From Escherichia coli O127:H6 str. E2348/69 (GTDB lineage: Bacteria > Pseudomonadota > Gammaproteobacteria > Enterobacterales > Enterobacteriaceae), in assembly GCF_000026545.1 (NCBI RefSeq), contig NC_011601.1: 64,000 nt of DNA, one strand, 5' to 3'. Positions 12,001 through 18,000 of the stretch are shown one piece after another. Position numbers: made by a program. Numbering within the stretch: the first letter of the stretch is position 1; each line of letters starts with the position of its first letter.

Positions 12001-15000
12001 AACGGTGTACGTGCTGCTTACATTCATAAAGCAGAACATCTGGAAGAACGGCGACTGATGCTACAGTGGTGGGCCGATTTTCTGGATGCAAACAGAGAAA
12101 GATTTATCAGTCCATTTGAATATGCAAAGATTAATAATCCATTAAAACAGTAATCATCCCGGGCAAATGCCCGGGAACCTACTCCAGGATTATTTTCTTT
12201 GTTAAAAAAACAGACAAAACGGTATTAACTTCGTAAGCGTACAGCGAGGGCCGTATTGACGGGGATGTGTTATTCAGCTGGCAGTGCTATGCGCCACGGA
12301 AGCAGTTCGCTGACCCGGTTGACCGGCCAGTCTGCTATGACGCCAAGCACATGGCGAAGGTAGCTTTCTGGATCCACGTCATTCAGTTTGCACATCCCGA
12401 TCAGGCTGTACAGTAGCGCTCCCCGCTCACCACCATGGTCAGAGCCGAAGAACAGGAAGTTTTTACGACCCAGACTGACCGCCCGCAGGGCATTTTCAGC
12501 GATGTTGTTGTCGATTTCCACCCAGCCATCGTTCGCATAGTACGTCAGTGCCGGCCACTGGTTAAGTGCGTACGCGAACGCCTTCGCCAACTCTGAGTAT
12601 CGCGACAGGGTCTTCATCTTTTCACGCAACCAGCTTTCCAGGGATTTCAACAGCGGTTTCGTTTTTCGCTGACGTTCAGCAAGCCGCTGCTCTGCCGGCA
12701 TTCCCCTTATATCCGCCTCTATGGCGTACAACTGACCGATCTGCTCCAGGGCTTCTTCCGTCAGTGCTGACGGGATGCGGACGTGCACATCGTGGATCTT
12801 TCGGCGGGCATGAGCCCAGCAGGCAGCTTCCGTTATCCCACCATTGCGATACAGCTCGTTGAACCCGGCGTACGCATCCGCTTGCAGCACACTGTCACGA
12901 ACGGTGCAATAGTCATCCGTCGTTGACAACAGCTGATACTGAGGGTTTCCGGGTCCTCTGCGAGCGATTCTGGCTGTTCGGCAGCTGCATCGAGAGTCAC
13001 AGGAAGTAGCTGGGGGCTCTCTGAAGAAGGTAATAGCAGCTTTCCCTCGCGCCATTGTTGTGTAAGCGCCCCATCTGCGACGTCTTGTGAAAATTGTCCT
13101 GTCTGGCAACAATCGCGCCCATCTATATAGATGGACACGAACGATGAATTCCCAGACAAAAAAAGATATTCCCTGCTTCCGTTCTTATTTGCCTGATGCT
13201 CTGCGTTTAAGATTTGAAGATAAACTGACCATCCGGGCCATCGCTCAGCGTCTAGGTCTCAGTCATTCCACAATACATACGCTTTTTCAGCGATTTATTG
13301 CATCCGGTATCGCATGGCCATTGCCCGATTCAGTTTCATTAGCTCAGCTTGACGCCATCCTTTATGCCAACAGAAAGAAGGAATTAACAGAGCCTCAAAT
13401 CAGCGAAGGCACATGGCGAAAAGAACGGCGAGCCAGCTACAGCCGTGAATTTAAGGTCCGTCTGGCTAAGCAGGCATTACAGCCCGGTGCTGTTGTTGCC
13501 CGGATCGCCAGAGAGCACGGTATCAATGATAACCTGCTGTTTAAATGGAAAAGCCAGTACGAGGACGGCTTACTGAGCGATGATGACATACAGGAATGCA
13601 TGCCTGTCCCGGTGGCTCTGACTGATACGCCAGAGCCGACCAGACCAGTTACAAATCCCTTCTGGCGTAACAAGCCTGATGAGTGCCCTGAGAGTGATCC
13701 CGGAAACGTCCCACGGTGCGAGCTGCATCTTAAATCAGGTGTGGTAAAACTGTTTGACCCTCTCACTCCGGAAATGTTACGGGCGCTAATCCGCGAAATG
13801 AAAGGAGGTACCCGATGATAACGCTGCCAACCGGTACCAGAATCTGGATCATCGCTGGCATCACAGATATGCGTTGTGGCTTCAACGGCCTGGCTTCGAA
13901 GGTGCAGAACACGCTGAAAGATGCCCCGTTCTCCGGGCATATCTTCGTCTTCCGGGGCCGCAGTGGCAAAATGGTGAAAATACTGTGGGCCGATCGTGAC
14001 GGGTTATGCCTGTTCGCCAAACGCCTGGAACGGGGCCGCTTCGTCTGGCCGGTAACCCGGGAAGGGAAAGTGCACCTGACGCCAGCTCAGTTATCCATGC
14101 TACTGGAGGGGATCGCATGGCAACATCCCAAACGGACAGAACGGCCTGGCATCCGGATATAACCCGTGATAAAACAGGGGAATGAACAACACACTCCCCG
14201 ACGACATCGAGCAACTGAAGGCCCTGCTGATCGCACAGCAGGCTGTTATCGTCCGTCTGTCTGGTGAAATAACCGGCTATGCCCGCGAGATCAGCTCACT
14301 CAGAGCGCTGGTCGCTAAACTGCAGAGAATGTTGTTCGGTCGCAGCAGCGAGAAAAGCCGCGAGAAGATAGAAAAGAAGATCGCACGGGCAGAAACGCGT
14401 ATAACCGAGCTCCAGAACAGGCTTGGTGAGGCGCAGTTGCAACTCACCTCAATGGCCGGAGAGACAGCGCCGAAAACATCAGACTCTCCCGTCCGCAAAG
14501 CACTTCCGGCAACACTTCCCCGTGACAGGCAGGTTATCTCCCCGGCAGAAACCGAATGCCCCGTCTGCAGCGGCAAACTGAAACCGCTGGGAGAAAGCAT
14601 CTCTGAACAACTGGATATCATCAACACCGCGTTCAGGGTAATCGAAACGGTTCGCCCAAAACGGGCCTGCAGCCGGTGCGACTGTATAGTTCAGGCTCCG
14701 CAGCCACCAAACCCCATCGAGCGCAGTTACGCCAGTCCGGCTCTGCTGGCCCGCATAATCATGGCTAAGTTCGCCGAGCATCTGCCGCTGTACCGTCAGT
14801 CGGAAATCTATGCCCGCCAGGGCGTGGAGCTGCACCGCAATACGATGGGGCGCTGGGTTGACATCATGGGAGAGCAGCTTCGCCCGCTGTATGATGAACT
14901 GAAGCACTATGTGCTGATGCCGGGTAAAGTGCATGCCGATGACACGCCGGTAAATGTACTGGAGCCGGGTCAGGGTAAAACCCGTACCGGACGGCTGTGG

Positions 15001-18000
15001 GTCTATGTTCGTGACGATCGCAACGCCGGTTCGACCATGCCGGCAGCGGTGTGGTTCTCATACTCTCCCGACCGCAAAGGCATCCACCCACAGCAACATC
15101 TGGCGGACTACAGAGGTATCCTGCAGGCCGATGCATATGCGGGTTACAATGCTCTTTACGAAAGCGGTCAGGCAACCGAAGCGGCTTGTATGGCACATGC
15201 CCGACGCAAGATCCACGATGTACATGTCCGCCATCCAACGACAGTAACGGGAGAAGCGCTCCGTCGTATCGGGGAACTGTACGCTATCGAGGCTGAGATC
15301 CGCGGCAGTCCGGCAGAAGAGCGACTGGCGGTCAGAAAAGCCAGAACGGTACCGCTAATGCAGTCGTTGTATGAGTGGCTCCAGGGGCAGATGAACACGC
15401 TGTCGCGCCACTCGGATACAGCGAAAGCGTTCACCTATCTGCTGAAGCAATGGGACGCTCTGAACGAATACTGCCGCAATGGCTGGGTGGAGATCGACAA
15501 TAACCTGTGTGAAAACGCCCTCCGGGTAGTTGCACTGGGGCGGCGTAACTACCGGACGTGGTTTCTGCCAGGTAAAGGCAACGGAACAAAAGAATCATGG
15601 TTTTTCCGGAACCGGCCACACCATGAATGACACGATGCCCGTCACCAATATTTCTGGCCAGAATCTCCTGCTGAATATCCATAATTTTGATTTGTGAGTT
15701 CTGTTTCACGGTCACTTCAGGAAACAGATGGGCGCGCAGAATATCCCTCATCCGGGGTGTTACCCGGGTTCTGAACCCCGTGGTAAACATCCCGGCAATT
15801 TTTTGCCGGAATACCTCAGGTAAAACAGACTGCGTCATTTCATCCTGACAGATTGTCTGTGCTGAAGGAAAAATCTTTTCCACCGCATTCTCATTATTCC
15901 CTGTCAGTGCCTTCAGTTGCTGACGGGTAATGCGGGTAAACACCACACCATACGCCCAGGCCAGGTTCAGCCGCCCCTTATACTGACCGTCATTCTGCCG
16001 TAAGCACGGGTCAGCAGGTAAGGCATTAACCGTATCACAGGCATAACGACGAACCTGTACCAGCGGATTTATTTCTGATTTCAGAAGACCGTCGGTTTCC
16101 AGTGTAACCTGCTCCTGATTTGCTTTACGTAATGTGGATACAGTCCAGTCCTTGACCTCCAGAAATACCAGCCCGTTATCCGGGTCAATAATGACAAAAT
16201 CCGGATGTCGGTTTTTCCGTCCCACCGGGATATCGTACCAGACAAAGCAATCATCATTCAGAAAGCTCTCCAGTCGTGAAGCCACCCTCCTCTCCCCTGG
16301 CGTCATTCTCTCCTCAGTGGACGCTGATATATTTATCAGTTTCGCCATAACATACTCATGCTCCAGTAAAACCATAACCGTCGACATATTCCGTCTGAAG
16401 GGAATATGTCGAATACTTCATTAAAATACAAACATTTAGTAAACTTCACTACGCAAGTGCAATTATCCAGTCCCGTCTAATGATTAAAAACGATAACCAA
16501 CTCCAACAGTAAATCCATTGACCGAATGTTTTCCATATATATCTGCTTTAGTTCCCTCATACCCAACATTTACAGACATATTGCCCCACGGATTAATAAT
16601 AACACCAGCTGCATAAGCAAAATCAGTGGATTTTTTTGATACAGACTCACTTAAATATCCATCAGACTCATCAGCACCCACACTGTTTCTCCACTCATAA
16701 TCTCCCTTCGCTTTAGTATGAGATATCCCCACCAAACCATAAAAACTGATATAGTCATTCAGACGATAAGCTGGGCCTGCGAGAAATGAATAATATTTAA
16801 TATCAGCCTGATGTCTGTAAAAATCGTCAGCTTCATCGCGATGACTGTCCGCCCAATCACCTTTCATATACGAAAAACTCCCGACGACACTGACCGGAGA
16901 ATCCCACTCATATCGATATTGCAGATTCACTCCTTTAATATTCTTAAAGTCCTGTACCTTACTCTGAGCATAACCAGCCGATAGCGTATGATTATCAGCC
17001 AGTCTTGAACCACTCATAACAGATAATATCATTACTGAAATTATAACGAGTTTTTTTCATTTAACCCTCCTTCATTAATAAATGATTTCTGAAAATCAAA
17101 AAGGACCACACATCTCAAAAACATTATTTGAAATCATCATCAAAAAACTATAAATATATCACCTGACGATTTGAACACACTGACAAAAAACCAAGCATGG
17201 TAATAAACCGAACTCCCCACAAACTTCTGTTGCCTCAGATACTCCCCCCCCCTTTCCTCAGGCACAAATGTTGTTCCATAACGAACCAGCCCTGTTCCTT
17301 TAAACTCTGCATCAATGGCATAATGTATACTCACCAGACTGAGTTTGCTCCTGCATCATTATTTCGATACGTTAATGCATTGTTCATTGCATCCGGCATT
17401 CCCCATCGAATATTTACTTTGTTATATCAGGCAGCCCATAACCAGGTAAATTTTTAAGGCTTACTGACTGAATATTCAAAATGTGTTACATGTTATCAAA
17501 CCTTTAAAGAATAACCTGCTCTTCTTCATTGGCCGGATTTAGCTCAATCTTGTCAGCAAAACTAATATAAAGCCGTTCATAAAGAGAAGGATGTAGCTTC
17601 GTTATTTATCTTTTACATGTAACAGTGCCAGGGGATATTCCGCACATCTCTGTGGCTATCATCCCCACCACGTCTCCAGTGGCAGCACCTGCGGCACTGG
17701 CACGGGCGTTATTTCCCTGTACCACCGCCAGTGCAGCATTCACCACGGCATGGGCTGCCACATTTGCAGTCTTATTCACCACACCTGTAACCTGTCTCTT
17801 ATACACAAATCCCCACCCGGGGATTTGTGATGTCTGTCAGTCTGCTTTAGGGGGACTCTTTCCATCCGGTAGTTTCCTTCCTCCCCGGCAGCGATTTTTT
17901 GAACTTTTTCTTCACCCGTTGATCTTCTCTTATATTTCATTTTCTTCGGGTCTGTTATGGTACTTTCTGATTGTTATTCACTGGCTAACGAGCAGTCTGG

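Follow-up and report, generated by a model that had tools for sequence, protein, structure and literature searches.

Head-to-head IS66-family fragments at the edge of the pheV island of Escherichia coli O127:H6 E2348/69: a probable nested insertion of an IS683-type element into ISEc8 and its conserved left-end palindrome

How did remnants of two IS66-family elements come to lie head to head, with a perfect 16-bp palindrome close to their boundary, at one end of a genomic island of Escherichia coli O127:H6 strain E2348/69? The stretch of DNA analysed here (64,000 nucleotides, in the following called the window) contains between positions 12233 and 15630 a minus-strand fragment of one insertion sequence (IS) and a plus-strand set of three genes of another. 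According to the original prediction, the palindrome marks their junction and might be the breakpoint of an inversion or recombination, or else an operator. It is highly probable that the locus has another history: an IS683-type element transposed into the tnpA gene of a resident ISEc8, two deletions followed, and the palindrome is an internal part of IS683, most likely with a cis-regulatory function for tnpA.

That two IS66-family fragments face each other was confirmed by Pfam analysis and by the gene order tnpA-tnpB-tnpC on the plus strand. The minus-strand part consists of the following features (coordinates without a label are those of the window; comparison records are cited as L001, L002 and so on).

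12233-12892, minus strand: first part of the ISEc8 remnant, with the right terminal inverted repeat (GTAAGCGTACAGC...) and the last ~620 nucleotides (nt) of tnpC; 99.2-99.7% identity to ISEc8
12893-12928, no strand: 36-nt filler (TGTCACGAACGGTGCAATAGTCATCCGTCGTTGACA) in place of ~1.4 kb of ISEc8; 100% match to L006 3001-3036
12929-13061, minus strand: second part of the ISEc8 remnant, a 133-nt internal piece of tnpA which stops at the IS683 insertion point; 100% identity to L003 6502-6634 and L005 3201-3333
13054-13061, no strand: ATTGTTGT, left copy of an 8-bp target-site duplication, the right copy of which is deleted in the window; ATTGTTGT occurs once in uninterrupted ISEc8 tnpA

Copies of ISEc8 from several plasmids and chromosomes (L003, L004, L005) were used for comparison. 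Both pieces belong to ISEc8, as shown by 99.2-100% identity to annotated copies and by the C-terminus of an IS66-type transposase. The stop codon of tnpC is located at 12270-12272. Because homology to ISEc8 starts at 12232/12233 in unrelated contexts, position 12233 is the outer end of the right terminal repeat, as had been proposed. The minus-strand transposase fragment had been drawn from 12270 to 13112. Such a fragment exists in this open reading frame (ORF; Pfam DDE_Tnp_IS66, 4.6e-56; DDE_Tnp_IS66_C, 1.6e-14), but only amino acids 74-273 match, and the homology to the ISEc8 transposase ends at 12892. Beyond this position the ORF is chimeric: the 36-nt foreign filler is followed by the 133-nt piece of ISEc8 tnpA, read out of frame, and by the left repeat of IS683. 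In comparison to ISEc8 of E. coli O157:H7, of which copies annotated by the Prokaryotic Genome Annotation Pipeline (PGAP) and in the Sakai record are 99-100% identical to 12233-12892 and 12929-13061, about 790 of 2442 bp are left. The left end and tnpB are lost, as are most of tnpA and two-thirds of tnpC from its 5' side; one deletion is filled by the 36 nt of foreign DNA, and IS683 interrupts what remains.

The plus-strand part and its right-hand boundary comprise the following features.

13062-15552, plus strand: IS66-family element of the IS683/ISSfl3 type, first 2491 of 2709 bp, right end missing; 99.6% identity to L002 1195-3685
13062-13087, plus strand: left terminal inverted repeat GTAAGCGCCCCATCTGCGACGTCTTG; the homology of copies in many unrelated contexts begins exactly here (GTAAGCG)
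13119-13134, no strand: palindrome CCATCTATATAGATGG, nt 58-73 of IS683, 9 nt upstream of the tnpA ATG; single occurrence in the window
13144-13818, plus strand: tnpA, 224 amino acids, with an N-terminal helix-turn-helix (HTH) domain like that of IS21 IstA (HTH_23) and HTH_Tnp_1; Pfam, start at 13144 according to PGAP
13815-14162, plus strand: tnpB (IS66 Orf2), 115 amino acids; Pfam TnpB_IS66, E = 2.5e-38
14182-15552, plus strand: tnpC (DDE transposase), first 457 of 518 codons; Pfam LZ_Tnp_IS66, zf-IS66, DDE_Tnp_IS66
15553-16348, minus strand: truncated NERD-domain/helicase pseudogene, fused to the broken tnpC at the deletion junction; Pfam NERD, PGAP 'NERD domain-containing protein, missing C-terminus', 'helicase' pseudogene in Sakai

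A complete 2709-bp copy of this element is present on an O121:H19 plasmid (L002, 1195-3903), with the terminal repeats GTAAGCGCCCCATCTGCGACG... and GTAAGCGCACCGTGAAGGACG... at its ends; the right terminal repeat GTAAGCGCACCGTGAAGGACGTGGGG, which is deleted in the window, was seen there at 3878-3903. The full gene set of the family was recovered by Pfam (HTH_Tnp_1 1.4e-24, TnpB_IS66 2.5e-38, DDE_Tnp_IS66 1.7e-98, zf-IS66 7.3e-16, LZ_Tnp_IS66 4.8e-11), and the terminal repeats are imperfect inverted repeats starting with 5'-GTAAGCG, the left one at 13062 and the right one in L002 only. The TnpA protein matches WP_001341423.1 exactly. The three-gene set had been placed from 13087 onward; tnpA, tnpB and tnpC are present, but tnpA starts with the ATG at 13144 and not with the GTG at 13087. 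The stretch upstream of this ATG is non-coding, since relatives have a 2-nt indel there. The predicted truncation of the downstream transposase near 15550 was located at 15552/15553, where homology to the intact gene is lost. The broken ORF continues through unrelated sequence to 15630, and PGAP labels tnpC 'missing C-terminus'. In comparison to the complete copy, the element in the window lacks the last 218 bp, that is 61 tnpC codons and the right repeat.

Regarding the name of the element, the E2348/69 protein entry reads 'Orf1 of IS683', the Sakai record 'ISSfl3 partial', and a homologue on pCP301 with 94.5% amino-acid identity is called ISSfl4. The choice among these near-synonymous names rests on the labels of the source records and not on ISfinder references (ISfinder convention: >95% DNA identity). 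IS679 was considered as a name and dropped, as the source records give IS683 or ISSfl3. The closest known elements are IS683/ISSfl3/ISSfl4 of E. coli and Shigella: with the complete 2709-bp copy the element shares 99.6% identity over 2491 bp, and TnpA, the order tnpA-tnpB-tnpC and the left-end palindrome are the same. At 224 amino acids, the TnpA of IS683 is longer than that of ISEc8 (126 amino acids), because it carries an extra N-terminal HTH domain (Pfam HTH_23; amino acids 1-110, 13144-13473). By tblastn, the extra domain is similar (~34% identity) to the N-terminal part of IstA transposases of the IS21 family, and the long TnpA is common to a large IS66 subgroup on enterobacterial plasmids.

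ISEc8 and the IS683-type element have 67% DNA identity in the shared tnpC region and 65% amino-acid identity in TnpC. Measured by this divergence, they are two different species of the IS66 family, and the fragments do not map to one contiguous IS. Their true junction is at 13061/13062, where the tip of the IS683 left repeat abuts ISEc8 tnpA; the palindrome begins 57 nt further inside IS683, past the left terminal repeat and ahead of the tnpA start codon, and occupies the same place in the intact copy of L002. The original prediction had put it at the junction of the fragments and at 13109-13124. A 16-bp palindrome does exist once in the window, but 10 nt further to the right, and it does not lie at the junction.

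The junction reads ...CCATTGTTGT/GTAAGCG (the slash marks the boundary). A hypothetical right junction was built from the right end of IS683, ATTGTTGT and the rest of ISEc8 tnpA, and was then searched for. It was found whole on two plasmids with 99.4% identity (L007, equal to H109, and H110). Both read ...GCGCTTAC/ATTGTTGTCGCCATTTG... and continue colinear with ISEc8 to its left end. In L007 the sequence is ...GGTGCGCTTAC/ATTGTTGT/CGCCATTTGAAC..., with ATTGTTGT at 5561-5568 directly behind the right end of IS683. Because the left junction of the window and the right junctions of the plasmids share ATTGTTGT, a simple transposition with an 8-bp duplication can be reconstructed. The 8-bp target duplication agrees with membership in the IS66 family, the two junctions being drawn from different records.

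Based on these junctions, the following course of events is proposed. ISEc8 was there first, at the integrase-proximal end of the pheV island. Transposing into its tnpA gene, the IS683/ISSfl3-type element would have come to lie in reverse orientation to ISEc8, with a duplication of the 8-bp target ATTGTTGT. As IS683 was inserted opposite to ISEc8, this insertion alone would suffice to explain the head-to-head layout. Later, ~1.4 kb of internal ISEc8 sequence would have been deleted, with the 36-nt foreign filler remaining in its place; another deletion would have taken the last 218 bp of IS683 (from nt 2491), the remaining left end of ISEc8 and part of the NERD/helicase gene. Neither of the decayed elements is able to move alone.

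Two other explanations of the layout have to be weighed against this transposition. If the palindrome were the breakpoint of an inversion or of an inverted duplication, the fragments would be mirror arms of one element about 13116-13126. The opposite strands of the transposase fragments and a 75-nt inverted match (73%) reported by the repeat search speak for this. A self-comparison of 12233-13118 with 13135-15700, however, revealed no mirror symmetry of the flanks about 13126. The sole inverted homology (12482-12887 versus 15526-15121, 67%) has its midpoint at 14004 and neither at 13116, where the original prediction had expected it, nor at 13126; it is the match of the homologous tnpC 3' regions of two oppositely oriented elements. 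Moreover, the arms are different IS species with 65% identical TnpC residues, the actual boundary is the IS683 terminal repeat at 13062, and the palindrome is also present in intact, unrearranged IS683 copies, among them the complete 2709-bp plasmid copy. In eight relatives it is likewise present, with a variable spacer. A breakpoint at the palindrome is almost certainly the wrong explanation. Such a layout might otherwise come from recombination, homologous or site-specific, of two separate copies of the IS66 family. This end of the island is highly prone to IS rearrangement, junctions within the same ISEc8 differ in an O121:H19 strain, and the left junction of L007 differs as well. Against recombination stand a boundary that coincides with base 1 of the IS683 terminal repeat and lies within ISEc8 tnpA, the complementary right junction with the same 8 bp, which is the duplication size expected for the IS66 family, and an identity of 67% that is too low for efficient homologous exchange, in addition to the wrong orientation. 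We regard recombination as very unlikely, and transposition of IS683 into ISEc8 is preferred.

The perfection of the palindrome by itself is not significant, since about one such palindrome is expected per 64-kb window: in shuffled windows the mean was 0.99 per 64 kb, and at least one occurred in 63.5% of the shuffles. That the palindrome is nevertheless non-random follows from its conservation in related elements. The arms CCATC/GATGG are unchanged across eight relatives (77-97% identity), and the segment 13085-13160 is better conserved in these relatives than the terminal repeat or the coding sequence. The centre reads TATATT or TATT in the eight relatives and TATATA in the window, so that the perfect 16-mer is specific to the allele of the window by one base (A versus T).

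The conservation extends to more distant members of the family. In total 74 left ends were extracted (from loci found by TnpB alignment in viral contigs, together with the window, L019 and L021), which fall into 10 distinct clusters. TGTCCA or TGGACA occurs 51-81 nt from the left tip in all ten clusters (sites: window 13116-13137; L041 791-885; L047 771-865; L049 820-914; L066 766-860; L072 785-879; L073 1035-1129; L087 1038-1132; L088 1020-1114; L021 207-301). TGTCCA lies exactly at nt 55 in six of them including ISEc8, and several have a second copy at nt 71-74. Even distant IS66 elements, whose N-terminal TnpA domain is 33-37% identical, carry ATAGTGTCCAT-N8-10-ATGGACACTAT in the same place. 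The copies of the hexamer are usually inverted; direct repeats were found in two lineages (the Serratia type of L049/L019, and L088). The motif was absent when it was looked for in the right ends of IS683 and ISEc8. In IS683 the right copy is intact (TGGACA, nt 71-76). As judged by sequence and by its distance from the left tip, the palindrome is homologous to the TGTCCA(N10-12)TGGACA pair of the sampled IS66-family elements.

Beside this, a mini-ORF of five codons (M-D-T-I-A/V; sites: L021 ~275-295, L018 ~245-265) begins with the right motif ATGGACAC in several relatives. Its stop codon overlaps the start of tnpA (ATGA or GTGA), as in translational coupling. From the equivalent ATG of IS683 (13131) a reading frame of 21 codons extends (window 13131-13196), which is not that of tnpA.

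The palindrome is likely a functional cis-regulatory site for the expression of tnpA. A control of the tnpA-tnpB-tnpC genes is suggested because the position of the motif is fixed, because it is restricted to the left end and because it adjoins the tnpA start. The operator named as an alternative in the original prediction is plausible; the motif pair of which the site is part is conserved in left ends and lies directly before tnpA. Either a protein such as TnpA would bind the palindrome as DNA, or the transcript would fold there and occlude the ribosome-binding site and the start codon. A protein operator appears somewhat ahead of an RNA hairpin, because distant elements conserve the sequence of the hexamers and not their pairing, and their orientation is sometimes direct. 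TnpA would be the obvious candidate for the binding protein, since all these elements share the HTH_Tnp_1 domain. To our knowledge, the role of TnpA in IS66 transposition has not been established. Tentatively, and with less than even confidence, a cis element common to the whole family may be considered, in which TGTCCA and TGGACA, ~16-18 bp apart at about nt 55 and nt 71-74 from the left tip and directly ahead of tnpA, would be bound by TnpA to autoregulate the operon or to mark the left end for the transpososome.

An explanation by RNA only would do without an operator protein: the palindrome would form a hairpin in a larger 5' leader that hides the ribosome-binding site and start of tnpA. 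The predicted fold of 13100-13165 has a free energy (ΔG) of -20.5 kcal/mol (z = -6.0), with the palindrome as inner hairpin. The 3' arm overlaps a GGA 8 nt upstream of the AUG, and this GGA, which is likely the ribosome-binding site, is paired, as are the A and U of the AUG. In nine relatives 18 of 18 pairs are kept, substitutions at the three stem positions that vary all give G-U or U-G, and between fixed arms the length of the loop ranges from 4 to 6 nt; leader structures are generally common in insertion sequences such as IS10 and IS50. On the other side, there were no compensatory double changes among the nine relatives, distant elements conserve TGGACA and not its pairing, and no hairpin is possible in the two lineages with direct repeats (L049/L019 type and L088 type). 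A purely RNA-based control is rather unlikely, though it deserves more credit than the view that the palindrome is a chance product of an AT-rich non-coding leader. For chance speak the expected frequency given above and the dependence of the perfect palindrome on a single base, which is different in the eight relatives outside the 99.6%-identical IS683 copies. But chance hardly explains why the arms and flanks (13085-13160) are conserved beyond the terminal repeat and the coding sequence, or why hexamers absent from the right ends keep their distance from the left tip in ten of ten diverged clusters; it is improbable that the site lacks a function.

Several observations weigh against the nested insertion with a regulatory palindrome that we prefer. 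Among the records examined, the two junctions (...CCATTGTTGT/GTAAGCGCCCC and GCGCTTAC/ATTGTTGTCGCC) never occur in one record. The O121:H19 chromosome (L017) has a complete IS683 in the same ISEc8 with other junctions; because these differ, the site has undergone more than one insertion or rearrangement, and the order of events proposed above is provisional. Regarding the regulatory site, the left half-site of IS683 is degenerate (CGCCCA versus TGTCCA), the perfect 16-mer is specific to one allele and expected about once per window by chance, and compensatory covariation, sought in the stems of the nine relatives, was not found, the stems being nearly invariant.

In the literature searched, neither left-end motifs of IS66 elements nor binding by TnpA were described, key IS66 papers being outside this search, so that a prior description is possible. 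The literature searched likewise contained no mapped binding protein, promoter or transcript start for IS66-family elements, and a scan of the plus strand from 12100 to 13300 for the sigma-70 consensus gave no promoter. In other insertion sequences, InsA of IS1 binds the IS1 terminal repeats, and leader hairpins of IS10 and IS50 block the translation of read-through transcripts. The IS66 motif resembles these self-regulating systems in that a repeat or hairpin, which is conserved in the sampled IS66 elements, follows the left terminal repeat and precedes the first gene, overlaps the likely ribosome-binding site and is restricted to the left end. It differs from them in its orientation, which is inverted or direct depending on the lineage. 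Although IS66-family elements are common on plasmids for virulence and resistance, little is understood of how the family is regulated and of what TnpA and TnpB do. The wider interest of the locus lies in the left-end motif pair common to the sampled IS66-family elements, a candidate binding site for direct experiment.

The region of 3.5 kb is 100% identical to the chromosome of the enteropathogenic E. coli (EPEC) strain O127:H6 E2348/69. It represents the integrase-proximal end of a pathogenicity island inserted at pheV, since it is flanked by yqgA, tRNA-Phe and a P4-type integrase, in this gene order.

10615-10690, plus strand: tRNA-Phe (pheV), attachment site of the island; ARAGORN, RefSeq annotation of E2348/69 and Sakai
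10888-12153, plus strand: P4-type tyrosine integrase of the pheV island; Pfam Arm-DNA-bind_3, Phage_int_M, Phage_integrase, and annotation

The whole arrangement, down to its breakpoints, is shared at 99.9-100% identity by 428-437 complete E. coli genomes, O157:H7, O55:H7 and O111 among them. The counterpart of the island in O157 Sakai is SpLE3, which is inserted at pheV and which we take to be the equivalent of O-island 122 of strain EDL933. The arrangement is already known and is ordinary transposon debris at an island edge: within the 'phage-like element SpLE3', the Sakai record annotates 'ISEc8 partial' twice ('ISEc8 Family: IS66 partial' for 12233-12892 and 'ISEc8 partial' for 12929-13061), 'ISSfl3 partial', and pseudogenes of a transposase and a helicase. 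The left end of SpLE3 has the integrase, a partial ISEc8, 36 nt, a partial ISEc8, a partial ISSfl3, the transposase pseudogene, the helicase pseudogene and a PagC-like gene. There is no substantive difference; the same inherited structure is found in another pathotype. The decayed and immobile IS debris, inherited with the pheV island by hundreds of EPEC and enterohaemorrhagic E. coli genomes, is of little import in itself. The IS nest can serve as a stable marker of common descent for the left end of the island across O127:H6, O157:H7, O55:H7 and O111.

O121:H19 is a variant of this structure, with a complete IS683 and different junctions. Its chromosome (L017, 250-4872) has the same island end and ISEc8 right end, and no matching target duplication. 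As the junctions differ and no such duplication is present, either a separate insertion or a deletion adjoining the left end of IS683 may have occurred there. Insertions of IS683-type elements into other members of the IS66 family, at their left end or in tnpA, were also seen repeatedly, with six or more independent junctions and one case in a further IS683 (window 13061/13062; L017 1852/1853 and 4561/4562; L002 1194/1195; L007 2852/2853; L010 ~60; L014 ~60; L024 ~245). A preference of the IS683 type for IS66-family left ends was considered and rejected: 14 of 15 copies in viral contigs lie in unrelated DNA, the 15th in another IS683. Neutral persistence of copies in IS graveyards, and not targeting, is the probable cause of the pattern.

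The 36-nt filler gave no match when it was compared with ISEc8. Its assignment as a piece of ISEc8 tnpB was ruled out, because the match belongs to L006, where it lies inside the remnant of an integrase-core-type transposase pseudogene of an unrelated island. The filler is present in 447 genomes, in about 19 of them outside the context of the pheV island. TGTCACGAACGGTGCAATAGTCATCCGTCGTTGACA is an imperfect palindrome with TGTCA...TGACA ends, and in L006 it has GAATG on either side, which recalls a very small element or the footprint of an excision. L004 (pGD17-2) was considered as an intermediate sharing the ISEc8 deletion endpoints of the window and was ruled out as well, as this copy has an independent internal deletion.

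On the other side of the IS debris, the NERD-domain gene (15553-16348, minus strand) has a helicase-like continuation with a Walker-A motif (GSGKT), which is cut at the deletion junction of IS683 tnpC. The island of E2348/69 carries espL2, a PagC/Ail-like gene and further IS remnants a few kb onward. Beyond the debris (16484-17032 onward; L001 10335-15520) follows the gene of an Ail/Lom (PagC-like) outer-membrane protein. The same part of L001 also contains a frameshifted TssE fragment of a type VI secretion system, pseudogenes of the IS4 and IS481 families and the type III effector gene espL2, and the content of the island past the IS debris is a typical mosaic.

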